A stretch of DNA of 32,000 bases from Ferroglobus placidus DSM 10642. GTDB lineage: Archaea > Halobacteriota > Archaeoglobi > Archaeoglobales > Archaeoglobaceae. Where the stretch lies: the NCBI RefSeq assembly GCF_000025505.1, contig NC_013849.1:1020001-1052000 (forward strand), read 5' to 3'. Of this stretch, positions 2 to 32,000 are shown one piece after another. Below the pieces are notes generated by a model, which was given only the letters and a program-made list of their open reading frames with translations, made no database searches and had not been told where the DNA came from. The translations under genes were made by a program, and so were the position numbers. The stretch's first letter is position 1, and each line of letters starts with the position of its first letter.

Positions 2-475
2 TTCATAGACGAAACTCATCTGATGGACATAGAGCTCTTCTCCTTCATGAACAGAGCGATGGAGTCCGAGATGGCTCCGATAATAATTCTCGCTTCGAAC
101 AGGGGGTTTGCGAAGATAAGAGGAACCGACGTAGTAGCACCGCACGGAATTCCTCTGGACTTGCTGGACAGGCTGCTGATAATAACTACCGAGCCCTACA
201 ACGAAAAAGAGATAGAAGCAATAATAAGAATCAGAGCTTCGGAGATGGGTGTGGAGCTGAGTGACGATGCTTTGAGAAAGTTGACAGAGTTAGGTGTCAA
301 GTTCAGTTTAAGATACGCTGTTCAACTACTTGCTCCAGCCAACGAGTTCGCCAAGTTAAGAAATTCAGGCAAGATAGGAGTGGAAGATGTTGAGAGGGCT
401 GCGGAGCTATTCGTAGACGTTAGTACGAGCTCTTCGTATCTGAAGAAGTGGGAAGAAAAGATGTTAACTTCCTGA
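2..475 (+). CDS. TIP49/RuvB-like AAA+ ATPase, C-terminal part (5' end outside window)
   Basis: The reading frame is open to the window edge (FIDETHLMDIELFSFMNRAMES...), which resembles the TIP49 'FIDEVHMLD' block. The ORF track gives 23..475. Confidence 0.7.
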   Translation, partial: FIDETHLMDIELFSFMNRAMESEMAPIIILASNRGFAKIRGTDVVAPHGIPLDLLDRLLIITTEPYNEKEIEAIIRIRASEMGVELSDDALRKLTELGVKFSLRYAVQLLAPANEFAKLRNSGKIGVEDVERAAELFVDVSTSSSYLKKWEEKMLTS

Positions 476-528
476 TTTTACAAAACTTTTTTATCAGAGA
501 ATTTGTAAATAATTAAGTAGGTGGTAAT

Positions 529-993
529 ATGGCGTTGGATGCGAACAAACTCGTTATTCGCCCGTTGCGACAGGAGGATTTTGAGGAGGTTGTGAGAATA
601 GATGCAGAGTACACCGGAGAAAGGAGAGAGGAGTACTACAGAAGGCTTTTCAACGAGATTCTTAATGCCGAGCACGCTATAATAACGTCTCTTGCAGCTG
701 AATACGACGGCAAACTCGTTGGATTTATAGCCGGAACAGTTTTCTCGGGAGAATTTGGAATTCCAGAGAATACTGCATACATAACAACGATGGGCGTTGA
801 TAAGAATTTCGTGAGAATGGGGATAGGAAAGGAGCTTTTTAAAGAGTTCGTGAGAAACGTTAGAGCTGCGGGAGTGACGAGGATTTACACAATCGTCGAT
901 TGGGAAGAGAATTGGGACTTGCTCAGCTTTTTCAGAAAAGCCGGATTCAAGCCGTCGGCAACGAAAATTTACTTGGAAATGGAGGTTCCCTAA
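529..993 (+). CDS. GNAT-family N-acetyltransferase
   Basis: 154 aa. It has an acetyl-CoA-binding-like motif (VDKNFVRMGIGKELFKEF) and GNAT-like beta/alpha spacing. An AGGTGGT RBS lies upstream. Confidence 0.8.
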   Translation: MALDANKLVIRPLRQEDFEEVVRIDAEYTGERREEYYRRLFNEILNAEHAIITSLAAEYDGKLVGFIAGTVFSGEFGIPENTAYITTMGVDKNFVRMGIGKELFKEFVRNVRAAGVTRIYTIVDWEENWDLLSFFRKAGFKPSATKIYLEMEVP

Positions 994-1053
994 TTTATTA
1001 TTCCTAATAGCGTTAATGAACTGCAAAAATCCGAAAAATCGTTAATTTTAAAA

Positions 1054-1097
1054 TTTACAATGTAACAAGAAAAACCTTTTAAACTTTACATTGTAAA
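1054..1097. promoter_or_regulatory. Two copies of a palindromic TTACAnTGTAA operator-like site between a TATA-like box and the ferredoxin start
   Basis: tttacaatgtaa (1054-1065) and tttacattgtaaa (1085-1097) are reverse complements of each other, and each is itself a palindrome. An AT-rich TATA-like ttaattttaaaa lies at about 1043-1054. Confidence 0.35.
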
Positions 1098-1105
1098 GTT
1101 CGTTT

Positions 1106-1417
1106 ATGATTGCTCAGTACGGCTATAGGGATGGGTCCGGCACGTATTACATAAGCATAGACACGGACAAATGCGACGGCTGCGTTGATTACGAAGTGGC
1201 TAAGTGCGTTGAAGTTTGTCCAGCGGGAGTTTTCGAGGTCGTCGACGAAGATCCGAACGATCCTCTAAGGGAGGAACCGGTTGCGATAGTTAAGGAGGAG
1301 CACAGAAACAAGCTAAGATTCAGCTGCGCCCAATGCAAGCCGGCAAGCGGCTACAGAATAGAAGATCTGCCCTGCGTTAAAGCCTGTCCGAATGGAGCTA
1401 TATCCCACAGCTGGTAG
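1106..1417 (+). CDS. 4Fe-4S ferredoxin-domain protein
   Basis: 103 aa with Cys clusters CDGC...C(x3)CP and CAQC...C(x3)CP. Confidence 0.7.
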   Translation: MIAQYGYRDGSGTYYISIDTDKCDGCVDYEVAKCVEVCPAGVFEVVDEDPNDPLREEPVAIVKEEHRNKLRFSCAQCKPASGYRIEDLPCVKACPNGAISHSW

Positions 1418-12926: not shown

Positions 12927-14193
12927 AAGCTGTTGGATTTACCTTAGCCAACCCCTCAGAGACTCCGTTTTCAACCCTCGTCAATGCAACGAAGAGCAAT
13001 GTAACCAAGAACTGCCTTCCATAGAATTCAATGGCTTCAAACCCCTTTACATTAAGGTTTTCATCGAATAGCAGTTGTTCTTTCAGTATTGAATGTAAAT
13101 TCTCTGAAACGTTCCTTCTGTGGTAAATCCTCTCGTATTCCTCAGGATTCTCTTGTTTAACTTTAAGCCATTGATTTCTGAAGTAGGCTCCAACTTCCTC
13201 GTAGTATCCATGCTCAAATAGAACTTTAAGCATCTCGTTGAAGCTAACATCGTAAGGCAAACCTTTCTCATAAGCTATTCCATTATAGACTTTCTCTATC
13301 CACTCTTTCGTTCCCTTCTTATTGAACTTAGCGTTTTCAGGGAGCTGGAAATAACATTCCGGTCCATACTTCATCGAACAAATAGCCCAGTTCTCAATCG
13401 TTCCGTAATGTGCATCTCCGTAGATTTCTTCTGGCTCAATTCCAAGCTCTCTTAATTTCTCAAGCATTGGAATCAGGTAATGTCCGTCATAAGCGTTTGC
13501 ATCCGTGACAATTAGTTCAAGTGGGATGTTTGTGTCAACGCAAGTTGCAAAGTGAACCTTTACCATCTTGCCAATGTTGTACTTCTGGAAGTAGTATGCG
13601 TTGTATTTGCCACATTCGTCGTTTTTAAGGGTTGGTAGCGGTGTTGAATCAATGCTTATCCTTCTTCCAAGCTTCATACCCTTCTCAGCCAATGCATTTT
13701 GCAGTCTCTCGATAAACGATTTCTGAATTTTTCTCAGGTTTTCGTTGCCCAACCTTTCATTGACAAATCGATTTATCGACCTCTCTGCTGGAGTTAGTAC
13801 CTCTCCTTCTTTTTCTACAAATCCTAAATCCTTAGCAATCTCTTCATCCCTTATCTTAGCCTCCAAGGTCGTGTAGAACTTTATCCTTGAAAGTCTCTGG
13901 AAGAACAACAGCCTGAGCATAGCTTCGACAGGATACATGAAGTGTTTTTCTGGTTTCTTGTAGCTGTTCAAGAGGATTTTAGCTTCTCTGCTTAGGTCAA
14001 TCAATCCGCAGAATTTAGACACCTTCATTGGAATTATTGATGGGTCGATGAAGTTCTGCCCCTCTATCTCTTCACTCTCGGGTTTTGTTATAGCTTCTAC
14101 TCTTTCTCTAATCTCCTTCAGCAAACTCTCCCAATCGAAACCTTTTTCTATATTTCCGATCACCAATATTAGGGGTTTGGTGGCGACGCCCAT
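12919..14193 (-). CDS. DDE transposase, IS4/IS5-superfamily type
   Basis: 424 aa. The candidate DDE triad sits in ISIDSTPL, IYGDAHYG and HRRNVSENLHSILKEQL (Y-x2-R-x3-E-like). Confidence 0.8.
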   Translation of the reverse strand: MGVATKPLILVIGNIEKGFDWESLLKEIRERVEAITKPESEEIEGQNFIDPSIIPMKVSKFCGLIDLSREAKILLNSYKKPEKHFMYPVEAMLRLLFFQRLSRIKFYTTLEAKIRDEEIAKDLGFVEKEGEVLTPAERSINRFVNERLGNENLRKIQKSFIERLQNALAEKGMKLGRRISIDSTPLPTLKNDECGKYNAYYFQKYNIGKMVKVHFATCVDTNIPLELIVTDANAYDGHYLIPMLEKLRELGIEPEEIYGDAHYGTIENWAICSMKYGPECYFQLPENAKFNKKGTKEWIEKVYNGIAYEKGLPYDVSFNEMLKVLFEHGYYEEVGAYFRNQWLKVKQENPEEYERIYHRRNVSENLHSILKEQLLFDENLNVKGFEAIEFYGRQFLVTLLFVALTRVENGVSEGLAKVNPTAFS

Positions 14194-14208
14194 GCTATCA
14201 AACCCCCC

Positions 14209-14248
14209 TGCTGGGGGAGTGGCTGTTTAAGGGGGTGCTCCCCCAGCA
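14209..14248. repeat. Perfect 11-bp inverted repeat (tgctgggggag / ctcccccagca) with an 18-nt loop
   Basis: Read directly. It lies between the transposase start and the 3' end of the tRNA. Confidence 0.6.
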
Positions 14249-14253
14249 CCTTA

Positions 14254-14326
14254 CGCCCCCGTGGGGATTTGAACCCCAGTCAGGCGGTGCGAACCCACCT
14301 ATGCTATCCACCTACACCACGGGGGC
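14254..14326 (-). tRNA. tRNA, anticodon UCG (Arg) by cloverleaf folding; anticodon loop atypical
   Basis: Reverse complement: GCCCCCG-UG-GUGU-AGGUGGAUA-GCAU-A-GGUGG-GUUCGCA-CCGCC-UGAC-UGGGG-UUCAAAU-CCCCA-CGGGGGC-G (73 nt). It has a 7-bp acceptor stem and a canonical T-loop. CCA is not encoded. G32 and C37 are unusual. Confidence 0.65.
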
Positions 14327-14471
14327 ACCACTTATACTATTTCGACTACGATACTGTATTTAAAGTTTGTGGTATACTACAAGTGTATCACTTGAATGAC
14401 TTAAAAGAACCACCATAGTTTTAGCGATAAATTTAAATATAGTAGACCACTACTATTTGTGGTGATGCAGT

Positions 14472-18324: not shown

Positions 18325-18975
18325 CTAATCCTTAAGCTTGTACTTGTCCCTCTCTTTGTGCACCATATTCAGTTTTTTCAACTCACATATGTGGTACTGG
18401 ACGGTTTTAACGCTTAAATTCAGCTTTTCGGCTATTTGTTTTGCGGTCAAACACTTATGCTCTTTCAGTAACTCTATAATCTCCTTCTTTCGACCTTTAA
18501 CAGCGATTGTCGGGTTAAAGTCATCAAAGCTTAGAAGCAAGTGCCTGCTTTTGCCGTTCTTAACAGTTTTTATCCAGCCATCTTCTTCCAGCTTGTTTAG
18601 ATGGTATCTGAGTGTGCTTCTGTTCTCTCCCGTAATCTTTTCGAGATCGGTTATGCTTATTCCCGGGTTTTCCATTATTGTCTTCAGAATTCTCCGTCTC
18701 TTTGCGTTTTCAATTGCCGATCTGATTTTGGTTACTACGATTGGCAGCAGCTTCCACGCAGCAAGAATTCCTGCTATTACCGTTACGATATGGTGGATTT
18801 TTATCCACAAAGGCAGATCCCAGAAGGAGACTTTAACCTCTGTTGTTGGATCGTTTTTGATTCTCTCCATCAGCTCCTCGTCGCTGACGTTGGCTGGCTT
18901 AACTTCAAATGCGTGAGCTAACGTTAACAGAAAGATTAGGAGTAAGAGACCCGAAAGCGCGTAATTCCACCTCAT
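18325..18975 (-). CDS. Membrane-anchored transcriptional regulator with two tandem winged-HTH (ArsR-like) domains
   Basis: Order along the protein: signal/TM1 (LSGLLLLIFLLTLAHA), a ~40-aa external loop, TM2 (IVTVIAGILAAWKLLPIVV), HTH-1 (RRRILKTIMENPGISITDLEKITGENRSTLRYHLNKLEEDGWI), then HTH-2 (KKEIIELLKEHKCLTAKQIAEKLNLSVKTVQYHICELKK). Confidence 0.7.
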   Translation of the reverse strand: MRWNYALSGLLLLIFLLTLAHAFEVKPANVSDEELMERIKNDPTTEVKVSFWDLPLWIKIHHIVTVIAGILAAWKLLPIVVTKIRSAIENAKRRRILKTIMENPGISITDLEKITGENRSTLRYHLNKLEEDGWIKTVKNGKSRHLLLSFDDFNPTIAVKGRKKEIIELLKEHKCLTAKQIAEKLNLSVKTVQYHICELKKLNMVHKERDKYKLKD

Positions 18976-19002
18976 GTCATTAGGCTTCCATCACATTGCA
19001 AA

Positions 19003-19368
19003 TCAAACTACTGTCAGAGAGTAGTGCTGAACTCCACTCACCTTTTCGCCGTATACCTTGAAGTACCAGAGACCAGTCTGAGCGTTACTTATGGTTAAGA
19101 GAATCTTTCTATCCACCCTTCCATCGGACGAGTCGCGGAATGTTTGATAGGTACCGTCTGGAGAATATACCGTTAAGGTAAGGCTGTTGGACGGATTGTT
19201 CCATACCAAATAAACGTCGAAGGAAGAGGAGGATATGTATTCGTAGAACCAGTCCGCTTCTCCCTGCCTTACCGAATCGTAGACCGTATTGATTTCAATC
19301 TCTTTAGCATTTGCCGGTAAAAGCAATACTAACGCCGCCACCGCCAGCAAAATCTTAAATTCTCTCAT
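19003..19368 (-). CDS. Small secreted protein consisting of a PPC (pre-peptidase C-terminal)-like beta-domain
   Basis: Start at MREFKILLAVAALVLLLPANA (ATG 19366-19368). A longer track ORF running to 19509 would read through the promoter cassette. PPC-like pattern: DWFYEY...LTLTVYSPDG...GLWYFKVYG...YSLTV. Confidence 0.6.
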   Translation of the reverse strand: MREFKILLAVAALVLLLPANAKEIEINTVYDSVRQGEADWFYEYISSSSFDVYLVWNNPSNSLTLTVYSPDGTYQTFRDSSDGRVDRKILLTISNAQTGLWYFKVYGEKVSGVQHYSLTVV

Positions 19369-19391
19369 GAGTCGTTTACATAACCATTTAC

Positions 19392-19466
19392 TATATATGT
19401 TTTCTGACCATGTTTTGAGAGTATAAAAATATATAGATATTTTACTATCGAAGACGTCAGAATTGG
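19392..19466. promoter_or_regulatory. Palindromic double-TATA cassette, copy 0 (right arm degenerate)
   Basis: Left arm tatatatgttttctgaccat at 19392-19411. The TATA centre is about 27 nt from ATG 19368 of the minus-strand gene. The right-arm remnant is gacgtcagaattgg. Confidence 0.55.
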
Positions 19467-19584
19467 AAGAGGTGAATAACTGAGATGCAACCCATGCCAC
19501 TCTCCCCACCAGCTTTTGTAGGAAATCAAGGCTGCGAGCTTAGAAAAAAAGTAACGATGAGGGAGAGTCTACAATTTAATATTG

Positions 19585-21112: not shown

Positions 21113-21181
21113 TTTTTAGGGTTGCGAATGTGCAACACTTATTCAGGTGAGTTCAAATTATTGAGCATTCATGTTAATTAG

Positions 21182-21259
21182 TATATAAACTTTATGACCA
21201 TAATTTGAGAACATAAAATTAGTTTAATATTCTAAAGTTATGGTCAGAATTGTTATATA
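21182..21259. promoter_or_regulatory. Palindromic double-TATA cassette, copy 2
   Basis: Arms are tatataaactttatgaccat (21182-21201) and atggtcagaattgttatata (21240-21259). Confidence 0.65.
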
Positions 21260-21302
21260 GCAATAGATAATGTAATATTGTGTAAATAAAAGAGGTGATG
21301 TG

Positions 21303-22199
21303 GTGAGAGTAGCTAAAGTAGGATTGGCGGTGTTACTGGTTTTGGTGATGTGGAGTAGCGTGGTGAGTCCAGTGATGGGGAAACAGACAAAAACGGTAAC
21401 AACTCTGGACACAAAGAACCTTTCACCAAACGATTTAATTGACACGGAAGAGATATACAGATACCTTCAGAACACATCGAAAGAAGAGGTCAGAAAGAAA
21501 TACGAAGAAGCTGTAATCATTGCCAAAGAGCAGTATAGGAAGGCAATCGAAAAACAGGATAAGGTTGTCAAAGAGATAGTGAAAAACAGAACGGGATTCA
21601 AGGATGATGAAATCAATACATTTATCAAAAGCGGGTATTACCACTCTGACCCAACTGCCGATGGTGGGACTGCGGATAGCGGAGGGTCTGGTATCGGATT
21701 CTCCAAAGCGTATACAAATGGTAATGAAATTCACGTATTCTCAAGGGCATGGGCTGCAGGTTCGTACTGGGCTACAGCCAGAGTTTGGGATGAGTTCACA
21801 TACACTGCATCTGATCACTGGAATAAGATTACTGTCAATTATTACTTGAGGGGTTTGCTTTTTGGAACCTTCCTACCTCCGTACACTGGGAGCTTCAGCA
21901 CTAAAATCGATATATACCTTCGTGTTTATGATCACACTGAAAATAAGGAAGTTGTTAAGCAGAAAATTTTCTCAGATGAAGTTTCAGTAATTCCTGGAAG
22001 TAAATGGCATGACGAAAGCAGAAGTGGATACGTTTACGCATACCTTAAGAACGGACATACGTATACAGTAGAACTGATCGGAGAAGTAAGTTCGCAGGCA
22101 GTTTTAGAGGCTGTTTGCTACTCTGATTTCAGCGACCAACAGTTCAACGGGGAATGGAGGTTAGTTAATTGGGAAAGTGACGTAGTCGAATGGATATAA
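21303..22199 (+). CDS. Secreted protein, orphan family A paralogue
   Basis: GAGGTGAT-gtg-GTG-AGA start context (track start 21300). Signal peptide is [25 protein letters not shown]. The C-terminal beta-rich domain aligns with 19713..20618. Confidence 0.7.
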   Translation: MRVAKVGLAVLLVLVMWSSVVSPVMGKQTKTVTTLDTKNLSPNDLIDTEEIYRYLQNTSKEEVRKKYEEAVIIAKEQYRKAIEKQDKVVKEIVKNRTGFKDDEINTFIKSGYYHSDPTADGGTADSGGSGIGFSKAYTNGNEIHVFSRAWAAGSYWATARVWDEFTYTASDHWNKITVNYYLRGLLFGTFLPPYTGSFSTKIDIYLRVYDHTENKEVVKQKIFSDEVSVIPGSKWHDESRSGYVYAYLKNGHTYTVELIGEVSSQAVLEAVCYSDFSDQQFNGEWRLVNWESDVVEWI

Positions 22200-22241: not shown

Positions 22242-22502
22242 ATGGTAGAGTGGATAAGCATTTTTGTATCATTTCTGATGATACTGATAGCACTTTATTT
22301 TTACTGGAGAATTTCGAAAAGAGTAAGAAGTCCTGCGAAAGAGAGAATCAGAGATGTTGGAATAGTAGGGATTATAATTTATTCGTGCGGTGTATTTTTT
22401 CAGAACTACGAACTCGCTGTTGCTGGCTCACTCATCTGGGCTTACGGAATGTTATTGCTCTTGGTTGAAGAATATCGAAAGGGAAAGGAGGAATCAAAAT
22501 GA
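22242..22502 (+). CDS. Small membrane protein (about 3 TM)
   Basis: 86 aa with hydrophobic segments and a K/E-rich C-terminus. Confidence 0.5.
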   Translation: MVEWISIFVSFLMILIALYFYWRISKRVRSPAKERIRDVGIVGIIIYSCGVFFQNYELAVAGSLIWAYGMLLLLVEEYRKGKEESK

Positions 22503-22548
22503 AATCATAAAGAAAATTAAAGAAAAGATTTAAATTGAGTTGGTTTAT

Positions 22549-23508
22549 ATGAACTCAGAAACTCTGCTGTTAGTGGTCGGTTATAGCCTGTACATTCTAT
22601 TCTTCGCACTGATCGTAAAAAGCACTCTCACGCTGAAAAGAGAAGAACCGACTGAGCTCGTTCCTTGGTGGGGTCAAAACAGACACAGTTGGGTGATTGG
22701 TGATGTGCCTGTTCCAGGATACGATAATTATGGACCGGATTCTTTGGAGTTGTATTTAAATAAGGCGAGAAACCAGTTTGAGCAGGGTGATGTAGAAGGG
22801 GCATATATTTACATTGGAAAGGCTTTGCATTACATCGAAGATTTGGGCAATCCATTCCACACATCGTCGGTTTATGGCCAAGCCCACCATATAGAGTACG
22901 AAAGTTGGGTCAGCAATCATTGGAGCGAGTTAAAGTCAGCGATGTACGTTAACGAATACTATATCATCACAGATCCAAGCGAAGATGCAAAAAACCTTGC
23001 AACCTTCTCACATCAATACTTGCAACAAATCTGCGACATAATGAACACGCCGGGATGGGAAAACAACCAGCAATTAAATGAACAATTGAAGAGCATTACG
23101 AGAACGCTAATAAGTGAAACCATGAAATATACAATGGGTATGATCGTTTACGCTACCAAGTTTGAATCGCCAGATACTGCAGGCTCCAATTATGTTCCAA
23201 TCTACGATCATCAGACTTCCTACGTCAACATAAACGATATTGCGTGCAGCAATCAGGTTTTGGCAATTGTGGAGATAGATCACACATATCCAGCAGATTT
23301 GGAGATATGGATAGGCTACAAGAGAACATACCAGAACACTTATACGGAGACAAAAGTGTGGGATCATGACTGGAGTAGCAACAACCACATAACAATCCAG
23401 CACTACTTCTGGCTGACTCCATCGAATTACGACTGGAGACTAAGAGTTTACGATGCTTGGAGCGGAGATCACGGCAAAATAACAGACTTTTACGTGCTGA
23501 TAGGGTGA
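22549..23508 (+). CDS. Zinc-dependent phospholipase C / P1-nuclease-fold protein fused to a proprotein-convertase P-domain
   Basis: An N-terminal hydrophobic signal/anchor is followed by WWGQNRHSW. GKALHYIEDLGNPFH and HHIEYESW match Zn-PLC zinc-ligand blocks (compare LSLHYLGDVNQPMH and FHSKYENF of Bacillus PC-PLC). The C-terminal VEIDHTYPADLEIWIGY...WRLRVYDAWSGDHGKITDFYVLIG is a P-domain signature. Track start is TTG 22540. Confidence 0.7.
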   Translation: MNSETLLLVVGYSLYILFFALIVKSTLTLKREEPTELVPWWGQNRHSWVIGDVPVPGYDNYGPDSLELYLNKARNQFEQGDVEGAYIYIGKALHYIEDLGNPFHTSSVYGQAHHIEYESWVSNHWSELKSAMYVNEYYIITDPSEDAKNLATFSHQYLQQICDIMNTPGWENNQQLNEQLKSITRTLISETMKYTMGMIVYATKFESPDTAGSNYVPIYDHQTSYVNINDIACSNQVLAIVEIDHTYPADLEIWIGYKRTYQNTYTETKVWDHDWSSNNHITIQHYFWLTPSNYDWRLRVYDAWSGDHGKITDFYVLIG

Positions 23509-23512
23509 TCCT

Positions 23513-24076
23513 ATGCCAAAAATAACTCTCAAATTTTTTAAAATTCTTATTTCATCGTTTTTAACTTCAATAGTGTTTATGAACATTCCGATCTACATGG
23601 TATTCCCAAAAATGTCTTCCTATGAATTCGGAGGTTTTCTTGCAGTAATTTCACTAATCGGTTTGATTTTTCTGAGTATGGAGGTGGAAAATAAGAAATC
23701 TGCCATACCTTTTGCAGTTTCTCTCTTGGCCTATGTATTTTTGATATTGACCTACAGAATATATCCGGACATTTTCCCAAATCACGACAGCTTTGCTTTG
23801 ATAGAATACACTCTGTTATCGGGTTTAATGATCTGCGCCTCGATTTTTCTTTACAGCAATATCGAGGATGGAAAAAGGGCTGTTACTGGATTTTTAGTTT
23901 TTGTAGTGCTCTACTCCGCCCTAACACTGATACCCTCAGCTTATGACGTGCTTTTCACTGAGCACCATTTAATCAGAGAGAGCCTGCTCTTATTTTACGG
24001 ATTGTTTCAATTAATAGCTACAATTTTTGGATTGTTTTATGTGACTTTGATGGTTATGAACAATGAACGTTTTTAA
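23513..24076 (+). CDS. Polytopic membrane protein (about 6 TM), immediately downstream of the PLC-like gene
   Basis: 187 aa and highly hydrophobic. There is a 4-nt gap after the upstream stop. Confidence 0.6.
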   Translation: MPKITLKFFKILISSFLTSIVFMNIPIYMVFPKMSSYEFGGFLAVISLIGLIFLSMEVENKKSAIPFAVSLLAYVFLILTYRIYPDIFPNHDSFALIEYTLLSGLMICASIFLYSNIEDGKRAVTGFLVFVVLYSALTLIPSAYDVLFTEHHLIRESLLLFYGLFQLIATIFGLFYVTLMVMNNERF

Positions 24077-24185
24077 ATGTTAGTGTCTCGACGCTTTCGA
24101 GATAGTAAGCCATGTATTCAAATGTCCAGGATCAAGAAAGTCTATTTCTTTCCATTGTTTTTGATTCTCACAGCGAATTAACTAC

Positions 24186-24263
24186 TATATAAACTTTATG
24201 ACCATAAGTTGAGAACATAAAATTAGTTTAATATTCTAAACATATGGTAAGAATTATTATATA
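24186..24263. promoter_or_regulatory. Palindromic double-TATA cassette, copy 3
   Basis: Arms are tatataaactttatgaccat (24186-24205) and atggtaagaattattatata (24244-24263). The right TATA is about 40 nt before ATG 24302. Confidence 0.65.
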
Positions 24264-24301
24264 TCAGTAAGTGTTAAGTAAGTAAAGAAAGAGGTGTTGC
24301 G

Positions 24302-25315
24302 ATGAGAAAAGCTGTATTGGTGTTGCTGCTTTTTGTGATTGCATGTAACGGAACCGTGGCGGGAAAAGAGTTCTCGGACGAGGTATCCGAAATCGTCGAA
24401 AGGATCTTAAACGAAGATGTCAAAGTGAACGTTCAGCCGGGCAAACTTCCGTCGAAAGCCGAGATAGAACAGCTGAACACCTATGTAAATCCGGTAACCA
24501 AGATCGTTAAAGCCTTAAAAGCTCGTGGGCTGGATAACAAGGAGATAGTTGAAATTCTAAAGAGGTACAATCTGGGTTGGGATCCAAGAACCGGAGCGGC
24601 ATGGAGGGAGTTTAAAAAGCCATCTGAAAAGGAGTTGTCATACCTGAAAACTCTTAAGCCACTAAGTAAAAATAATAATGATGTAAGTATAAACCAGATT
24701 TCTGGGCAGGCAAATCAGGTTATGGAGGTTATCCCAGACGATATTTATCGAGGGATAAATACAAATTTGAAACCCAGTGAGATGAGGCTTGAATCAGATG
24801 GAACGGTTCAACACGTTATAACTACTCACGTTGGAAGAACTCTCGTCAATGAGAGTTGCTGGACAGAAGCTGGTGTAGTTAGGTGGTTGGTTGATGGTGA
24901 ACCGTCAGATATCTGGATATTCACTTTCGATAACGATGAGGGACAGTGGAAATGGCATGGTACGACGAATTCTTCTACATTCACGAATTACATAATTTAC
25001 GTGACTGACCAAGTAGATGCCTGGGGATACATATACCACATCTGGATTAACGAAGAGTGGGTTAGAAGTGGGCACTTGTGGTACAGAGAGAACAATGTCG
25101 ATCAAGCTAACGAGGTGTGGACGGATACTGGAAGCTATACAGATGATTACGGCGTTGCAAAGCATGACGATCCGTTCCTGTATATTCAGGATTACGCTGT
25201 GTGGTGGGACGACAACGTAAGAACCGAGTGGTGGCATTCTCCAACAAATCAGTGCCCGGTGAAGGAATATCACGAGCTGGAGGGTAGCTCATGGGCTTAC
25301 TGGACGTGGATCTAA
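24302..25315 (+). CDS. Secreted protein with a Trp-rich C-terminal domain (unknown function)
   Basis: Signal peptide is MRKAVLVLLLFVIACNGTVAG. The C-terminal ~170 aa are unusually rich in W, Y and D. Confidence 0.65.
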   Translation: MRKAVLVLLLFVIACNGTVAGKEFSDEVSEIVERILNEDVKVNVQPGKLPSKAEIEQLNTYVNPVTKIVKALKARGLDNKEIVEILKRYNLGWDPRTGAAWREFKKPSEKELSYLKTLKPLSKNNNDVSINQISGQANQVMEVIPDDIYRGINTNLKPSEMRLESDGTVQHVITTHVGRTLVNESCWTEAGVVRWLVDGEPSDIWIFTFDNDEGQWKWHGTTNSSTFTNYIIYVTDQVDAWGYIYHIWINEEWVRSGHLWYRENNVDQANEVWTDTGSYTDDYGVAKHDDPFLYIQDYAVWWDDNVRTEWWHSPTNQCPVKEYHELEGSSWAYWTWI

Positions 25316-26175
25316 CAAAAATCTTTCTCATCTTTATTGTTGTATTCTCCTTAATTATCTCCGGTTGTTCCGATAAAGATGAGAACAAGTCTAACGAAGG
25401 TGAAGAAATTAACGTCAGCCAGAAAGCTCTCCAAATAGCTTTAAACGACAGCAAGGTCAGGAGGGTAATCGGTACGAACTACAAGATCATCGAAGTGTCG
25501 AAATCCCACCTGGAGATAATAGGCAACGGAACGAGGATTTCAAGAGATTATCCGGTAGTAGTTATCGAAACGAAAAGCTCAATTGAGTACATCTTCGTGG
25601 ATGTTCAAAATGAAACGGTCGTGCACATAGGGAGGATTTATAAAAGATCTCCCCTCCCAACAGAAGAACCAAAGCAAACGTCCATGCCTCCAGTAAGCGT
25701 TAATATAACTTTCATCGAGAACACAATCCTAAAAAAAGATGAAATAAAATCCGTTATTGGAGAAGAGTTTGAAGTAATTAGCTATGAATTTACGAACAAC
25801 TCCACAATAATAAAGGTGTTTGTTCAAACGCCATGTGCCGATTATTCCATAAAGTATGGTCTTGCTAACAACACGGTAATTTCAATCGATAACGTTTATC
25901 CCTGGAAGAAGACAATAAAAGAGGAGCCTGTAAGCGAGGAAGAAAAACAGAGATTTCTTGCCATAGCCCTAAACGATTCGAGAATTAAAGAAGTGCTGAA
26001 GGGGAGAGATTTTAATGTTAGCATGGTCAAGTACGTCATGTATATGGCCTGCCAGAAAGCAAGGGACCCCGATTCTGTACACATAACGTTCAAACTTGAT
26101 TCAGAGATTTACAGGGTTGTTTTACTCCCATACAACGGTGAACTGAGAGTTGTAAGGGTTGAAAGGATGGTATGA
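25291..26175 (+). CDS. Lipoprotein-like secreted protein with repeated PepSY-like modules
   Basis: A GGAGGG RBS precedes the start. The sequence has a lipobox-like LIISGC. Internal repeats are QKALQIALNDSKVRRVIG... and QRFLAIALNDSRIKEVLKG... Confidence 0.6.
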   Translation: MGLLDVDLTKIFLIFIVVFSLIISGCSDKDENKSNEGEEINVSQKALQIALNDSKVRRVIGTNYKIIEVSKSHLEIIGNGTRISRDYPVVVIETKSSIEYIFVDVQNETVVHIGRIYKRSPLPTEEPKQTSMPPVSVNITFIENTILKKDEIKSVIGEEFEVISYEFTNNSTIIKVFVQTPCADYSIKYGLANNTVISIDNVYPWKKTIKEEPVSEEEKQRFLAIALNDSRIKEVLKGRDFNVSMVKYVMYMACQKARDPDSVHITFKLDSEIYRVVLLPYNGELRVVRVERMV

Positions 26176-26194
26176 GAATATTTCAGTGTTTTTT

Positions 26195-26914
26195 ATGAAG
26201 CGAGAGGTCTTAATCTCGGTTCTCCTTGGGTTCTTCACCGGATCCCTCTTCATTCTGACAGCAATAGCCCTCGATGTGGCCGGCTTAAAATTTGATGTGT
26301 GGCTTCCAGTTGTGCTATCTCTCGCCATCGCCTCCGCACTTCTTATCTATGCACTTAGAGATGCAGGCAAAAAGAAGCTTGGAGTGGCCGTAGCCCTCTT
26401 TATAATTTCCTCAACATACAGCGTGAGCTTTTTCTACGATTTCACATCAATCGGCCCCACTCCAGAACAGCAGGCGTATATGCATTTGCTTTCAAAGATT
26501 CGGGATGTGAATGGAAAAATAGACCCGAACTGGAGAGATTCAAGCTGGAACTTTTTGAGCCCGAAGTGCTATTCAGCATCAGTGGCAAGAAAGTATGGTA
26601 ATACATCTCTTGAAATGGCGGTCTTTTCCTACAGATATTCGAAAACCCAGTACGATCCCAACAGACCCATAAAAATCCTTTTCACGAAGCTCTTCTGCGG
26701 CTATGCCGATTCAAAAACTGCTTATGAGAAATACAAAAGAGCTTTATTGAATAATGGATTTAAACTGGAGGAAAATAACGGCAGCTTTTTAGCAGAAAAC
26801 GAAAGTTTAGTTGTATTTTGCAGTCGTGAAAGAGAGCTGATTGCTGTGGTAAAGGTGGATAAGACGGAGCTGGAATTACTTAAAGCTGAAATCCATGATG
26901 TGGAAGTGATGTGA
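26195..26914 (+). CDS. Membrane protein (3 TM) with a C-terminal soluble domain
   Basis: Start chosen at MKREVLISVLLGFF (track start 26159). Its C-terminal domain is homologous to pseudogene 20633..21112. Confidence 0.6.
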   Translation: MKREVLISVLLGFFTGSLFILTAIALDVAGLKFDVWLPVVLSLAIASALLIYALRDAGKKKLGVAVALFIISSTYSVSFFYDFTSIGPTPEQQAYMHLLSKIRDVNGKIDPNWRDSSWNFLSPKCYSASVARKYGNTSLEMAVFSYRYSKTQYDPNRPIKILFTKLFCGYADSKTAYEKYKRALLNNGFKLEENNGSFLAENESLVVFCSRERELIAVVKVDKTELELLKAEIHDVEVM

Positions 26915-27934
26915 TGAAAGCAGCCAAAGTAGGATTGGTTTTGCTGATAGGTTTTGTTAATATCCATAGCAACTGCTGCAAATTTAAACAGCAAGCCTGA
27001 AGGCGCCATTGAAATTGGAAAAACAAACAACAAGAAAGTAGAAACTTTGCTTGGAGAAGTTTTAAAAGACAATAAACTTACACCCGAAGAACTAAAAACA
27101 CTATATGATGCTAGAGCCAAGATACTTGTCGCAGAGAATGAGATGGCAGCAAATCATTTAAAAAAGTTGCATGAAGACTACGATTTAATAGTGCCAGGAT
27201 ATATGGCCTCTGAATTAGATAAATTGATAGCTGAAGAATACGTCAAAAGGCATGGATATCATCCTGAAGAACTGGGAGTTAAACAGATAGAACCTGTAAA
27301 TGAAAAGTTGGACGATATGATAAGAGAAGGGGATGTTAGCATTCAGGGATGTGAATCCCCTGGCAATCCAAACGATCCGCCATATGCAGACTCTAATGGA
27401 GTAATTTATGTCGTTTCGTATCCAGCAAGTGATTCGGCCCATACACCAGCGGATGGAACGAACTGGGATGATATAATGGCAGGAACAGCTCCATTTGAAG
27501 ATGAGTTTGGAGTAGATGTAATTTTAGGTGGTTGTTATAACTGCTGGGATGCCAGTGATGTTGATGACGATGCCTATAACCTAATAAATGATCTTGAAGA
27601 AGATGTAGATCATAAGACAGAGAATACAGTAATTGTTGGGTGGGTGGATGATGCAACTCTTAACGGAATTGGGGTGCTGAGTGGACATTACTCTGTCTGT
27701 GCCGAAGCACCAGTGTGGTGGGTAGGAAAAGTTAATTGGCCCGATGATAGCGTCGTACAGCATGAATTATCGCACAATTTCGATGCGCAGGATCAAGATG
27801 AATCGGGAACAAACTGCACAGGTTAATGCATAATGAATTACTATTGGGCATGGAACTGGGGTGCAGGAACTGACAAATGGTGCTCTTATCATTACAGCAT
27901 TGTGGAAAACGGCGTTTGGGGGGCGAATGGTTAA
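26914..27934 (+). pseudogene. Secreted metzincin/reprolysin-like zinc metalloprotease, disrupted twice
   Basis: An ATG overlapping the upstream TGA encodes MKAAKVGLVLLIG, then the frame is lost at the T4 run 26952-26955. One T fewer gives MKAAKVGLVLLIGLLISIATAANL. The HELSHNFDAQD zinc site is followed by an in-frame TAA (27824-27826), then a Met-turn-like CIMNYYW. The frame continues to the stop at 27932-27934. Confidence 0.6.
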
Positions 27935-27959
27935 CTGTCTCCCTTTTATTTTGGGAGTG

Positions 27960-28363
27960 ATGGGGATGAGAAGGGGTGTAAAAATTCTAATCATCTTGCT
28001 GCCAATTTTTGCGGTCGTAGTGTATTTTGTTATAGTATTTATAAACAGCTTTATTATCTCCCCTCCAGCTAAACCCCTCAGCTTCCATATTCTCAATATA
28101 AGGATAACGCTACACACTACATCGCCATCAAAATCATAAATAGATCTGGGGAAGTAATTTTTGCAGAGGAGTATGAAATAAATCCATCGGAGAAAATAGT
28201 GACCCCAATCATTACTAAGACTAAGGGAAGGTATTTAATTAGAGTGACTATGGACGGAACAATCGTAAAAGAAAACTATGTTTCCGTTGCAAGCGGACAT
28301 GGTGCGTTCAGCATAACTATACTTCCAAAAGAGAGAATTAGCATAGATCAAGCAGTTATATGA
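27960..28363 (+). pseudogene. Membrane-anchored small beta-domain protein, frameshifted at a C4 run
   Basis: MGMRRGVKILIILLPIFAVVVYFVIVF...SPPAKP is in frame 0. A 95-codon ORF with no start codon (28073-28363, ...HYIAIKIINRSGEVIFAEEYEINPSEK...) continues in frame 2. One extra C at 28074-28077 joins the two. Confidence 0.5.
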
Positions 28364-28469
28364 TTTAACATTTTATGAGGATCCCGTGAGACGGAGCCAC
28401 TGCAGTTTGAGGGATGAAACGATTGACTCTGTATGAATAAAATACGTAAGAATGAAGTGTGAAAGGAAA

Positions 28470-28631
28470 ATGAACCTGATCGCAGTCTCTACGTTTAGTT
28501 TCCTCATCTGTCTCCCAATTCCGGCCTACTGCATTTACTGTACTCACAAGGCGATTAAAAGGTGCACTGGTAATGACTACCGGATTTGTTGTGCAAATAG
28601 CTGCAAATTTGCTGTTTCCAGTTTTTACTGA
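28470..28631 (+). CDS. Candidate small (53 aa) Cys-rich secreted peptide
   Basis: Sequence MNLIAVSTFSFLICLPIPAYCIYCTHKAIKRCTGNDYRICCANSCKFAVSSFY, with a hydrophobic N-terminus and 8 Cys. It is below the ORF-track cutoff and the RBS (GAAAGGA) is weak. Confidence 0.25.
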   Translation: MNLIAVSTFSFLICLPIPAYCIYCTHKAIKRCTGNDYRICCANSCKFAVSSFY

Positions 28632-28747
28632 CAGCTTCACTCAGGATACCTTGCTTACTCTCTTTACGGTTTTTACAGCTCGTATTGGTGATGACGTGTA
28701 ATATGCCAGATCGTTTAAGCATATGGAGCTTAGTAATTGTACACCTG

Positions 28748-28826
28748 TATATAAACTTTATGACCATGTTTTGAGAAAATAAAATTAGAAAAATAATTCT
28801 TAAGATATGGTCAGAATCGTTATATG
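28748..28826. promoter_or_regulatory. Palindromic double-TATA cassette, copy 4
   Basis: Arms are tatataaactttatgaccat (28748-28767) and atggtcagaatcgttatatg (28807-28826). Confidence 0.65.
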
Positions 28827-28906
28827 TCTGGAACGTGTTAATACTAATTAGGCGGGAGGTGACGACTTGTGAAAGCCGTAAAGTCAAGTAAAATTGAGGT
28901 GAGAGA

Positions 28907-29644
28907 ATGGCAAAAAGAATAAGAAAGCTATGGATTGCAATTTTGCTGGTGTTGATGACCGCAGCGTTCGCCTATGCCAATTACAGCACTCCCCCGGAAG
29001 CGCTTCCACCGCCGCCTGAGCAGCATGATTCCACAACTCCTCCAGTAAAACCCAAACTCGTCTCAACTCCAGACATCCAGCCAGAGAACTTGAGAATCGT
29101 GACAGAAACGGAAAAGGCGAAAGTCGTGGAGATAATAAAAGGCGATGAAAGGATAAAAAAGATGTTAGGCAATGCTAAATGGAAGCTTTTGCACATTAGC
29201 TCATACATATCTACCGATGGCAAGGTTAGAGCAGTCATCGGGCTTGATTCACCAACCTGGGTTGAGACTGAGGTTTACATCAAAAAATTCGATGAAATGG
29301 CACTGGCAAAGCTCTGGACCGAGAGCATAAACGTAAAGGTCAACCTTACCAGTGGAAAAGTTGCGAGCATATATCCAAACCTCGGAAGAGGGGAAGGAGA
29401 TGTATTTACTGATGAGAAAGTGGAGGCGGGCAGAAAAGCGGCTCTGCAATATGCGGCCAACTTTGGCAAAGTCAATAACTCTTACCTGAATGCCGTCTAT
29501 TACATCCCAAACCACTACCCAGAGGGCATAGCGTTTTTCAGAGTTTTTGCTGAAGGTAAAGAGTTCATGGTTGCTGTTGACCTCTCAAGTATGGAGGTTG
29601 TGGAAGAATTCACCGGAGAGGTGAAAGAAATTCAACATGGGTGA
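28907..29644 (+). CDS. Secreted/anchored protein with a Pro-rich linker and PepSY-like modules
   Basis: GAGGTGAGA RBS. N-terminus is MAKRIRKLWIAILLVLMTAAFAYA, followed by PPEALPPPPEQHDSTTPPVKP. EKAKVVEIIKGDERIKKMLG resembles the repeats in 25291..26175. Confidence 0.6.
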   Translation: MAKRIRKLWIAILLVLMTAAFAYANYSTPPEALPPPPEQHDSTTPPVKPKLVSTPDIQPENLRIVTETEKAKVVEIIKGDERIKKMLGNAKWKLLHISSYISTDGKVRAVIGLDSPTWVETEVYIKKFDEMALAKLWTESINVKVNLTSGKVASIYPNLGRGEGDVFTDEKVEAGRKAALQYAANFGKVNNSYLNAVYYIPNHYPEGIAFFRVFAEGKEFMVAVDLSSMEVVEEFTGEVKEIQHG

Positions 29645-29648
29645 GATC

Positions 29649-30287
29649 ATGAAGAGGGGGATTTACCTGAGCATTTTATTAGTGGTCTCATCTGTGCTCG
29701 TGGTGGATGCTGCCACAACATCTAATTTGGCGATACTGGGAGTATACGAAGATAGATTTGCAAACTACGACCTCGACTCAAAAGAATACTCGCCGAACAA
29801 CGTAGACTGGCCAGTAACAATGGTTTTTTGGAAGAACGCAGATGTAAACAAAGTCAAAAGCATATTCTTTGGTCAGACAATACTTGCGTGGTCCAAATAC
29901 GGCAGGCTTAACGATAGTGACGGATGGATATGGGATGAAGACCGTGGAACTAAGGGTGGTCCTTATAACGTCAACATCAACGGCACAAATTTTACCGTAT
30001 ACTTGCATATGAGGGTCTACGCTCCAAACCCTCCGGACTACATGAACAACAGCGGGTGGGGCAGATACGTTCTGGCTACAACACATTATGATGAATATCC
30101 ATGGGAAGGCTGGAGTGGATACAGCGAACTTGCAGAAAAAGACTTTGCAGATATTGCAGCATCAAAAGGCTACACCGTTGCAAGAGACTGGGCTTATTTT
30201 TACAATTACGAACCTTACGACGATACAAGGAATCCAGACCATATTTGGCTCAACAACGGATATGCCACAGCTGTGATGGTTGAATAA
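29649..30287 (+). CDS. Secreted hypothetical protein
   Basis: Start chosen at MKRGIYLSILLVVSSVLVVDA (track start 29637). The protein is rich in W, Y, N and D. No family recognised. Confidence 0.55.
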   Translation: MKRGIYLSILLVVSSVLVVDAATTSNLAILGVYEDRFANYDLDSKEYSPNNVDWPVTMVFWKNADVNKVKSIFFGQTILAWSKYGRLNDSDGWIWDEDRGTKGGPYNVNINGTNFTVYLHMRVYAPNPPDYMNNSGWGRYVLATTHYDEYPWEGWSGYSELAEKDFADIAASKGYTVARDWAYFYNYEPYDDTRNPDHIWLNNGYATAVMVE

Positions 30288-30314
30288 TACTGTTATGTGA
30301 AAAGAGGTGATGTG

Positions 30315-31454
30315 ATGAGAAGAGCAGTGGCGGTGTTGCTGGTTCTGGTGATGTTAGGGAGTGTGGTGAGTCCAGCTATGGGTGCAACCACAGCAAAGAT
30401 GAAACCAATTCCAACTACAGAGAGGATGGAGCTACATAAGAACATAAACATCATAAAAATTGACCCAGCTCTTGAAAATGCAACACCCTACTGGATAATC
30501 ATCGCCGCTGGAAGCATGGAAAAAGGAAGAGCTGTAACCTTCAAGTACATAGATAGCAGCACGAGTTTGACGAAAGAAGAGAAAATTGAGCTGAAAAAGT
30601 TCGTTAAAGAACTGTGGAAGAAATATCGTGTGAAAACCATTAAAGACGGCAATATAACCTTGATCACTTTGAACTCAAAAGTAGAGATAAACCTTACACA
30701 AGAGGAGGAGGCTATGCTGGATAAGGTTGTTCAGGCTGTAAACGAGTACTTCAGAACAAAGTATGGTGGAGTCATAGGAATCCTCTGGAATGTTGATACT
30801 CATCAGAGCATAATCTACATCTCATGCAAGAAGTGGGGCGAGAGCGATTACTATTGTGGAGTTGCAAGGGATCATGCCGACGATCCAGACTACTGGACGC
30901 AAGTTCCTCCTCCACCTAGGTATCCTAACTGGCTATGGGATTTCATAATGCAGGTCGTTCATTCATGGACGCATTACTACAATCCAGACTGGGGCATAGG
31001 TTCAGCTCCAAGTGAAACTAAATACTACGCAGATACAGCCAAGAACAAATATTCAAGCGGGTACAAGTATTCTGCTTTCCAGAATCTCGGATATGCAAGC
31101 CACTTCATGACAGATGTCGGAAATCCTTTACACACCGGCTTGGAGAGCTGGCAAGCAGTTTTTAAAGACATTCATTACGCTTACGAGGATTACGTTTCCA
31201 GCAATTGGGAGAGCGGTTACAATTTCAAATCTGTAATCGAGAACAACTGGTACTACTATGCAATCAACGATCCGGAACAGGCAACCAAGGATTTAGCCAG
31301 TTATTCTCATCAGTACGACGATACAATATTCTGGACGATTTATTGGAACCCAGACACTTGGCAGAGCAATTCAAATATAAAAGATGCCACAGAAAACAGC
31401 CTGCTTGAAACAGCAAAGTACACCCTTGGCTTAGTAAAATACGTTAGGGGTTGA
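30315..31454 (+). CDS. Secreted zinc-dependent phospholipase C-like protein (second copy, no P-domain)
   Basis: GAGGTGAT-gtg-ATG-AGA start context. Signal peptide is [26 protein letters not shown] blocks are [25 protein letters not shown] and IHYAYEDYV. Track start is 30297. Confidence 0.7.
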
Positions 31455-31455
31455 A

Positions 31456-31809
31456 ATGAGAGCCGAAGATGTACTTTTTATTTTATTTGTTTTTTTAATA
31501 CCGGCAATGATAGCAAGTTACGTCTTCATAAAGATGACCAAGGTCAAAAAAGTTTACTTCCCTGTTTTGCTCATTATTGGCTTTGTAATCACTTTTGTTG
31601 AAGGCTTCATCCTGTTCCTCGTAAATTTCGGAGCTATCCATACAGGTGGTTTTGCTATCCAGCCCGTGCCAGATATAATTATGCAAAATCCAAATCCACT
31701 AATACGTTTCTATGGAACGTTAACCCTTCTGTGTTTTCTGAATGCATCAGTACTGACTGTATTGTATGTAATGGTTGCGAAAATTGGGATTATAAAAGGT
31801 GAGAGGTGA
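31456..31809 (+). CDS. Polytopic membrane protein (about 4 TM) directly after the PLC-like gene
   Basis: 117 aa and hydrophobic. There is a 1-nt gap after the upstream stop. Confidence 0.6.
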
Positions 31810-31813
31810 TGCT

Positions 31814-32000
31814 GTGAGAAGAGCCATGGCGGTGTTGCTGATTTTAGTGATGCTGGGAAGTGTAGTGACTCCAGTGATGGCTGTAAAAACGTTAGAACCT
31901 CCCGTACATCCACCAAAATTCAAAGTAAAGATACCAGAGCCTTCACAACCTCTAAATGAATCCGAACTTTCGCACATAGTGATCCCCCTTCATTGGCTTT
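31814..32000 (+). CDS. Secreted protein, 5' part (continues beyond window)
   Basis: GAGGTGAT-gct-GTG-AGA start context. Signal peptide is [22 protein letters not shown]. The frame is open to the window end. Confidence 0.55.
   Translation, partial: MRRAMAVLLILVMLGSVVTPVMAVKTLEPPVHPPKFKVKIPEPSQPLNESELSHIVIPLHWL

Follow-up and report, generated by a model that had tools for sequence, protein, structure and literature searches.

Zinc phospholipase C-family genes paired with diverse membrane-protein genes in Ferroglobus placidus and related archaea: a possible self-protection module

In a stretch of 32,000 nucleotides (nt) of the genome of the thermophilic archaeon Ferroglobus placidus DSM 10642 (positions 1,020,001–1,052,000 of the single 2,196,266-bp contig NC_013849.1; family Archaeoglobaceae; hereafter the window), two genes resembling those of zinc-dependent phospholipases C, which we call PLC1 (22540..23508) and PLC2 (30315..31454), are each followed within a few nucleotides by a gene encoding a polytopic membrane protein. 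What is the meaning of this arrangement, and could the second gene protect the producer from the product of the first? The original prediction, made from the sequence alone, had read both genes as encoding secreted enzymes and the whole arrangement as similar to that of toxin–immunity loci. Of the two secreted enzymes that it proposed one, PLC2, proved to be intact, whereas PLC1 is 5'-truncated and probably a non-secreted remnant. What is new here is a family of zinc phospholipases C in archaea whose membrane partner, hitherto undescribed, is both conserved and diversifying. The reading towards which we lean, tentatively and with slightly less than even confidence, is that of a secreted lipid phosphodiesterase pro-enzyme and a cognate, immunity-like membrane protein that serves self-protection; we infer the lipid substrate, the proteolytic activation and the immunity function of the module.

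The tight coupling of the enzyme to a variable membrane protein, as initially proposed, was borne out by a survey of gene neighbourhoods. Loci of the enzyme family were gathered from 40 relatives, 400 phylum-wide genomes and several metagenomic contigs, and at each locus the next open reading frame (ORF) on the same strand was inspected, with the presence of at least three hydrophobic segments as the criterion for a partner. At about 23 of the 37 loci with an intact enzyme (not all of them independent, and some near-identical), such a polytopic ORF began at a distance of −4 to +103 nt from the enzyme stop codon. These ORFs encode proteins of 115–261 amino acids (aa), or of 428 aa where two units are fused, and the paired loci span Archaeoglobaceae, Methanomicrobiales and Methanosarcinales. 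At three further loci, a polytopic ORF was located one gene further on, or upstream. When ORFs of 300 aa or more from the F. placidus genome were judged by this crude criterion, 24 of 889 (2.7%) had such a neighbour, which gives the background rate. Clearly, the pairing of the enzyme with a polytopic partner is conserved well above chance. The enzyme family itself is patchily distributed, being carried by 67 of 401 genomes and 29 of 121 genera.

Could the adjacency nevertheless be non-functional, with the small membrane-protein genes just riding along in the packed operons of a mobile and decaying secretome island? The genes of the operons in the island around both modules are all tightly packed and either overlap or are set only a few nucleotides apart (ORF list), so the 1–4-nt spacing between enzyme and partner is not special in itself, and several other small membrane proteins and pseudogenes are present in the island as well. 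However, the enrichment of the pairing is roughly 20-fold over the genome background, and the pairing recurs across archaeal classes and outside islands, as in the Archaeoglobus contig L053, in which the pair lies between ordinary metabolic genes. Non-functional adjacency is thus already disfavoured, and we consider it very improbable.

The enzyme of the intact pair, PLC2, is encoded on the forward strand by a gene that has 379 codons if the ATG at 30315 is taken as the start; another possible start is the GTG at 30297, from which residues are numbered here. The protein starts with a signal peptide of typical form (residues ~7–29, ending AMG↓A), which is followed by a conserved alpha/beta domain (residues ~50–160, hereafter the N-domain) and by a catalytic domain that begins with an invariant Trp, W164. 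In an alignment of PLC2 with its relatives (32 sequences), the invariant residues included W164, H169, D198, H226, H269, D273, H279, H293 and E297, and the last six of these nine were aligned by HMMER to zinc ligands of Bacillus cereus PC-PLC, the complete set of which is W1, H14, D55, H69, H118, D122, H128, H142 and E146. Judged from these alignments, PLC2 has the complete set of nine ligands of the PC-PLC tri-zinc site, and the ligand blocks that the original prediction ascribed to it are all present.

Relatives of PLC2, 65 in number, occur in Archaeoglobaceae, Methanomicrobiales, Methanoperedens, Methanolobus and Methanoregula. The family that they form with PLC1 is unnamed in databases, and nearly all of its members are labelled there as 'hypothetical protein'. 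The similarity of the single PLC2 sequence to known enzymes is weak (PF00882, E-value 0.16, below the cut-off; Listeria PlcB by phmmer, E-value 2e-3), and its identity to the PC-PLC/PlcB group is 17–19%. A profile of the PLC2 family matched B. cereus PC-PLC (1ah7/2fgn) with an E-value of 1.6e-13 and with the ligand blocks in register, which, at the level of sequence profiles, establishes the homology of the family to PC-PLC. The fold assignment was confirmed as well. An AlphaFold2 model of PLC2 (predicted local distance difference test score, pLDDT, 86.4; predicted TM-score, pTM, 0.84) had PC-PLC (2ffz, 1ah7) and PlcB (8cqm) as its best Foldseek matches in the PDB (E-values of 3e-5 to 1e-4, target TM-score of 0.60–0.68), and clostridial two-domain phospholipases C ranked after them.

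The superfamily to which these enzymes belong includes nucleases, and one could imagine that PLC2 and its relatives are secreted tri-zinc phosphodiesterases that act on nucleic acids, as S1/P1-like enzymes do, or on other phosphodiester polymers, and that their membrane neighbour has nothing to do with protection of lipids. The spacing of the W-x4-H motif with which the catalytic domain of PLC2 begins would be in keeping with that, as it may resemble P1 nuclease more than PC-PLC. In contrast, the search of PDB sequences with the PLC2-family profile found only phospholipases C, and no nuclease, at E-values up to 0.01. The P1-type nuclease 3w52 matched the PLC2 model with an E-value of 0.13 only (TM-score of 0.22–0.30), as compared to 3e-5 for PC-PLC, and the identity of PLC2 as a P1/S1 nuclease (PF02265) was rejected. 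Moreover, the PLC1-type clade has the layout of membrane-binding clostridial phospholipases C, a helical domain plus a beta-sandwich, and the steady presence of linked membrane-protein genes suggests a membrane context. A non-lipid substrate of the enzymes is in our opinion improbable.

The corresponding Trp forms the N-terminus of mature PC-PLC (residue 1), where it binds zinc through its amino group. PLC2 is thus most simply read as a zymogen, which would need cleavage before W164: by analogy with PC-PLC and Listeria PlcB, the removal of the ~110-residue N-domain would make the Trp a free N-terminus. The N-domain (window positions 30450–30790; ATPYW...LWxKYPV...LTxEE) was also found at the N-terminus of ~550-aa beta-propeller-like proteins of methanogens, which end in a PGF-CTERM-like tail or anchor (L058:808–2496, reverse strand; L060:537–2195, forward strand).

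PLC1, the other enzyme gene of the window, is a different case. The ORF (22540..23508, forward strand) encodes 322 aa and represents a sister clade with a C-terminal beta-sandwich that resembles a P-domain or a carbohydrate-binding module (CBM). The catalytic domains of PLC1 and PLC2 are paralogous (E-value 1e-18, 37% identity), and the profiles of the two families align with an E-value of 1.4e-36, ligand block to ligand block. The PLC1-type relatives are mostly of 430–500 aa; full-length ones of 453–461 aa are up to 93% identical. They contain (alignment A2) a signal peptide, an N-domain, W-x4-H and WADD, and then NRHSW, HYIEDLGxPFH and HxxYE, and the full-length relatives P0066, L021 and L053 carry all nine ligands. 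In the case of the closest relative, P0066 (453 aa), residues 165–453 corresponded at 93% identity to nt 22639..23508 of the window (tblastn). Its N-terminal third (residues 1–164) had no match anywhere in the window, which ruled out the location of the missing part elsewhere in it. The nucleotides 22540..22638 encode 33 unrelated hydrophobic residues, and the similarity to PLC1-type proteins begins just past the Asp ligand.

As judged from this comparison, the 5' third of PLC1 is lost, and with it the signal peptide, the N-domain and three zinc ligands, W, H and D. The zinc site of the window copy is therefore incomplete, with six of the nine ligands kept, and its product is probably neither secreted nor catalytic. 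This changes the interpretation of two motifs. The original prediction, which placed the gene at 22549..23508, had taken WWGQNRH for the N-terminal W..H block and had found the region of the SHFYDP ligand block missing. However, the His of WWGQNRH is the sole invariant His of the family between the equivalents of D162 and H228. In the alignment it is matched to the HSW(T)HYYNP block of PLC2 and thereby occupies the place of the SHFYDP-type ligand; what is missing is the N-terminal third. As regards the proprotein-convertase P-domain proposed for the C-terminus of PLC1, the fold class is supported by modelling, but not the membership in PF01483, for which the E-value was 0.054, below the cut-off. 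In the model of P0066 (pLDDT 85), both domains matched clostridial two-domain phospholipases C (E-value 4e-10), and the beta-sandwich alone, a jelly roll, matched the furin P domain (E-value 3e-5) and various CBMs (E-values of 4e-4 to 1e-3; Foldseek).

The ratio of non-synonymous to synonymous substitution rates (dN/dS) between the truncated PLC1 and intact copies was 0.04–0.07, at a synonymous divergence (dS) of 0.5–0.9. No relaxed selection on the truncated gene was seen in this comparison, which indicates that either the truncation is recent or the remnant is still useful.

The membrane proteins encoded downstream of the two enzymes are located and built as had been described. The partner of PLC2 (31456..31809, forward strand; family C) has 117 aa and three hydrophobic segments, and its gene starts 1 nt past the PLC2 stop codon. 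The partner of PLC1 (23513..24076, forward strand; family D) has 187 aa and about six transmembrane (TM) segments, and its gene starts 4 nt past the PLC1 stop codon. The two proteins are indeed not similar to each other (hhalign probability <1%), and searches of Pfam and NCBIfam with all partner proteins gave no family. The 117-aa protein has a conserved loop, NFGxIHTxG..IQ..P...PxPLIRxYGT (residues ~57–88), which would face outward by the positive-inside rule, with a K-rich loop (residues 26–34) inside. Its gene also follows PLC2 orthologues in four other genomes (G171, G206, G112 and G248). An exhaustive HMMER search of 1.8 billion representative proteins gave only three real relatives of it; matches to proteins of 2,700–4,900 aa were rejected as an artefact of summed weak matches to Calx-beta-like repeats. 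The 187-aa protein has an invariant loop, YDVLFTEHHLIRESLLL, and its most conserved segments are YDVLFTEHHLIRES. By the same rule its conserved loop would be directed outward, toward where an exported enzyme would be. It has 17 relatives of 68–97% identity, of which the named ones are from Archaeoglobus or Geoglobus, and its matches among the genomes are confined to Archaeoglobaceae. The 4-nt gap that precedes its gene was also found between a full-length PLC1-type gene and the family D gene in L021 (G022) and in L053.

Across the enzyme family, at least eight families of partners could be distinguished with the use of phmmer and hhalign: A, B, C, D, E/G, F, H and I. All-against-all comparisons by both methods did not unite them, except for E with G and for a weak signal between A and F, which indicates that the association arose, or diverged beyond recognition, many times. 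In a maximum-likelihood tree of the enzymes, the type of partner mostly tracks the enzyme clade: D occurs with PLC1-type enzymes, and B and E with two methanogen clades, the E-type pair being common to three methanogen families. Thus, the partner gene is both adjacent to the enzyme gene far more often than the background predicts and co-inherited with it, as is characteristic of a cognate pair. Within the tight clade of Archaeoglobaceae PLC2 enzymes, C-, A- and F-type partners are interleaved on the tree. Partners may also be multiplied: tandem paralogues are present in L049 and L072, a fused double unit of 12 segments in L071, and two different partner families are stacked in a row in L003. 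In the Methanosarcina-type contigs (L071:3994–5280; L072:3937–5468), a PLC1-type gene is followed by a further six-TM family (MRIKIAL...ITYRNPEN), in the form of two tandem genes or of one 428-aa two-unit fusion.

The D partner can outlive its enzyme. Its gene is intact at loci where the enzyme gene is reduced to its last 15 codons (L055/L056) or to a short 5' scrap (L057). The dN/dS values for D were 0.12–0.26 in all comparisons and 0.12–0.21 at the enzyme-deleted loci. Clearly, the D partner is under purifying selection, the enzyme-deleted loci included. A genome of the same genus, G001, has an intact D partner (80% identity) and no detected PLC gene; as its contig ends ~125 nt upstream of the D gene, we did not count it as a case of an orphan partner. 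The module also appears to move between genomes. Compared with their counterparts in a genome of a different genus (G022), PLC1 and D are 93% and 84% identical, respectively, as opposed to 62% for a neighbouring aminotransferase, and in the comparison with G171 the PLC2 orthologue is 85% and the aminotransferase 71% identical. With this one gene as the yardstick, the enzyme remnant and the D partner suggest a recent horizontal exchange of the module.

How could such a module work? In our interpretation the window harbours, in two copies, a module of two genes that is conserved in archaea. The product of the first gene would be a zinc phospholipase C-family pro-enzyme, exported by the Sec route, with a tri-zinc site and a catalytic domain opened by the invariant Trp, and the mature enzyme would cleave membrane phospholipids at their glycerol-phosphate diester, outside the cell. 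The second gene would encode a small polytopic membrane protein that neutralises or excludes the enzyme at the surface of the producer's own membrane; the conserved loops predicted to face outward, in which His and Glu are frequent, could be what contacts the zinc site. As a cut of the phospholipase C type, unlike that of phospholipase A, does not depend on ester-linked chains, an archaeal producer could be vulnerable to its own enzyme. Of the two copies, the 30315/31456 pair would be intact, whereas in the 22540/23513 pair, with the enzyme predicted to be inactive and the partner intact, the partner would be a retained 'orphan' protector. The tight and ancient linkage, the unrelated and lineage-restricted partners, their duplication, the survival of a partner beyond its enzyme, and the patchy, transfer-prone spread in an island of secreted proteins fit a toxin–immunity-like logic, as does the purifying selection on D at enzyme-deleted loci, and the coupling of an enzyme gene to a variable polytopic membrane protein, as it had been proposed, stood up to the analysis.

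Several observations, however, weigh against a protective role of the partner or against the enzyme assignment behind it. Non-homologous partners (of type C, of type A, or of types F and A together) accompany PLC2 orthologues that are 70–85% identical to each other. As specific toxin–immunity pairs usually co-vary, near-identical enzymes with non-homologous partners are a poor fit to specific neutralisation. One of the two window enzymes is a remnant, and the short enzyme–partner spacing is general in the operons of the island. At about a third of the loci, the neighbour of the enzyme is a single-pass protein of 220–300 aa, from one or two related families, or there is no such neighbour. The retention of orphan partners is not universal, as the D partner is itself broken in G020 and G182. 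Both window enzymes score below the PF00882 gathering threshold (12.4 and 14.7 bits, as compared to 26.8), and a precomputed PF00882 match exists for 3 of the 65 relatives, so the family assignment rests on profile and fold evidence. Furthermore, the presence of the N-domain on unrelated surface proteins marks it as a mobile module, which might equally be a surface-docking domain; thus, it may be a docking module instead of a pro-peptide. Finally, self-protection would be superfluous if the secreted lipase were directed against bacteria.

The main rival to the immunity reading is a docking or accessory role of the partner. The enzyme would be the same, but it would serve nutrient or phosphate scavenging or the remodelling of the producer's own envelope, not antagonism, and the polytopic or single-pass partner would dock, orient, mature or regulate it at the producer surface. 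The conserved linkage and the inheritance of the partner type with the enzyme clade would be explained by such a role, and the tolerance of closely related enzymes to different partners would be explained by it as well. The sharing of the N-domain with PGF-CTERM surface proteins is a hint of surface association, and further secreted proteins are encoded in the PLC2 operon, in which no gene could be recognised as one of conflict. However, at least eight unrelated families of partners are hard to fit to one defined biochemical accessory role. An accessory factor would not be expected to stay under purifying selection after the deletion of the enzyme, nor would tandem duplication be expected of a chaperone or an anchor. 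We consider an accessory role of the partner to be rather unlikely, and we retain the self-protection reading as the one we favour, with the reserve stated at the outset.

PLC2 is similar to B. cereus PC-PLC (1ah7, 2ffz) and Listeria monocytogenes PlcB (8cqm), members of PF00882, in its all-alpha tri-zinc fold, in the nine ligands, among them the Trp at the start of the catalytic domain, and in Sec export. As in PlcB, the Trp would become free only on removal of an N-terminal extension. It differs from them in its low sequence identity and sub-threshold Pfam score, in the nature of the extension, which is a folded and conserved domain present also on other surface proteins, and in its archaeal host, whose ether lipids are built on glycerol-1-phosphate. 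Moreover, the archaeal loci have a dedicated downstream membrane-protein gene, whereas the bacterial genes do not. The PLC1-type clade is similar to clostridial phospholipases C of the alpha-toxin type (1ca1, 1olp), its top Foldseek matches, in the combination of a helical zinc domain with a C-terminal beta-sandwich. However, its sandwich resembles the proprotein-convertase P domain or a carbohydrate-binding jelly roll, and the likeness is probably analogous; the window copy differs additionally in its truncation and the loss of three ligands.

As a whole, the archaeal module resembles the systems of bacteriocins that act on membranes, such as pore-forming colicins, whose immunity proteins are small and polytopic, and the effector–immunity pairs of lipases (Tle–Tli). 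In all of them, a small gene lies directly downstream of the gene for a secreted membrane-attacking protein, the partners are highly diverse, and tandem copies, apparent orphans and a patchy, transfer-prone distribution are found. The likeness to the immunity proteins of bacteriocins is one of function and not of homology: the archaeal proteins have no sequence or fold relation to them, the enzyme is conserved while the partners switch, and the protection is putative. The archaeal module is also Sec-dependent, with no dedicated delivery apparatus.

In the full-text literature on archaeal zinc phospholipases C and on archaeal toxin–immunity phospholipases, we found no paper on the PLC2/PLC1 family. 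The Het-C toxin domain of polymorphic toxin systems was described as related to phospholipase C and to S1-P1 nucleases (Zhang et al. 2012, PMC3482391). According to a preprint of 2026, archaeal phospholipases that kill bacteria are just beginning to come to light. Cinquedea is a secreted bactericidal phospholipase of Haloferax with an alpha/beta-hydrolase fold, and it was argued that ether lipids make its archaeal producer naturally immune (bioRxiv 10.64898/2026.06.10.730825). The module described here shares with cinquedea the patchy distribution and the proposal that an archaeal secreted phospholipase is a weapon. It differs in the fold of the enzyme and in the bond that is attacked, which is an acyl ester in the case of cinquedea, and the text on cinquedea makes no mention of immunity. 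A phosphodiester cut of the phospholipase C type could in principle hit archaeal lipids too, which would explain the need for protection.

The island in which both modules are located is AT-rich (38–42% G+C, as compared to 45–50% upstream) and consists of operons, each led by a copy of a ~79-bp AT-rich cassette, which was found by repeat analysis at 19392, 19595, 21182, 24186 and 28748 and which would act as a promoter. The promoter-like copy at 28747..28825 (forward strand; repeat families D1 and D6) leads the genes starting at 28907 and 29637, PLC2, the gene of the 117-aa partner and the next secreted gene, in this order. The copy at 21174..21265 (forward strand; repeat families D1 and D5) leads the genes starting at 21300 and 22242, the truncated PLC1 and the gene of the 187-aa partner. 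Many genes of the island are opened by a near-identical module composed of a ribosome site and a signal peptide (repeat families D2–D4).

Other secreted genes of the island stand next to genes of small membrane proteins too, in agreement with the original prediction. The secreted gene 21300..22199 is followed by an ORF for an 86-aa two-TM protein (22242..22502, forward strand), a weak relative of which comes after the PLC module in another Archaeoglobaceae contig (L001:6710–7006, E-value 1e-5). The segment 20633..21112, with three in-frame stops, is a decayed copy of the membrane-protein gene 26159..26914. The intact copy encodes a protein with three TM segments, the soluble C-terminal half of which is conserved. 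Its homologue with 44% identity (L001:5766–6479) lies directly 3' of the PLC–partner pair in the same Archaeoglobaceae contig, which indicates that the conserved neighbourhood is larger than two genes.

The gene that follows the 117-aa partner gene overlaps its end, starts with the conserved signal-peptide module (31799..32000 in the window, forward strand; repeat families D2 and D3) and appears to be divided over two reading frames shortly after the window ends (L052 ORFs 300..542 and 530..1153); judged from its sequence, it is probably a frameshifted pseudogene. Further downstream (L052:1395–1928, ~window 32894–33427), two short ORFs resemble decayed fragments of a single-pass family, NVT..IPxxY...ETEYGKM. 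Members of this family follow PLC genes in other Archaeoglobaceae (L009, L016), and members of a related family follow PLC genes in methanogens. At the left edge of the island (18325–19509, reverse strand), a gene for a membrane-anchored protein with two winged-helix domains of the ArsR/MarR type adjoins that for a PPC-domain secreted protein. Similar winged-helix and PPC genes, as judged by eye from N-terminal sequences, adjoin the PLC2 orthologue in G020 (L003), and the two genes are a candidate regulator pair for the PLC module. Upstream of the island, in another low-G+C stretch (11–15 kb), a DDE transposase gene (12919–14327; PF01609, E-value 2e-13) is located beside a tRNA-Arg(TCG) gene.

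We know of almost nothing on how non-halophilic archaea fight or defend themselves against their neighbours, and of nothing on enzymes that attack archaeal membrane lipids from outside. The family described here is present in about one in six of the sampled genomes of the phylum, and the two-protein system bears on the phospholipase C-type hydrolysis of glycerol-1-phosphate ether lipids, on the self-protection of producers, and on lipid-based warfare in thermophilic anaerobes and methanogens. The most far-reaching possibility, which we regard as doubtful, is a widespread and hitherto undescribed system of antagonism in archaea. In it, Sec-exported zinc phospholipase C zymogens would cut the phosphodiester of lipid headgroups, those of archaeal ether lipids included, and each of them would be coupled to polytopic or single-pass membrane proteins for immunity that turn over fast. 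The modules would be exchanged horizontally among archaeoglobi, relatives of anaerobic methanotrophic (ANME) archaea and methanogens, with orphan immunity genes left behind. Such a system, if true, would represent the first 'archaeocin' outside haloarchaea that is an enzyme, targets lipids and comes with cognate immunity. If the partner is instead a docking factor, the pair would represent a new means by which archaea keep exo-enzymes at their surface.

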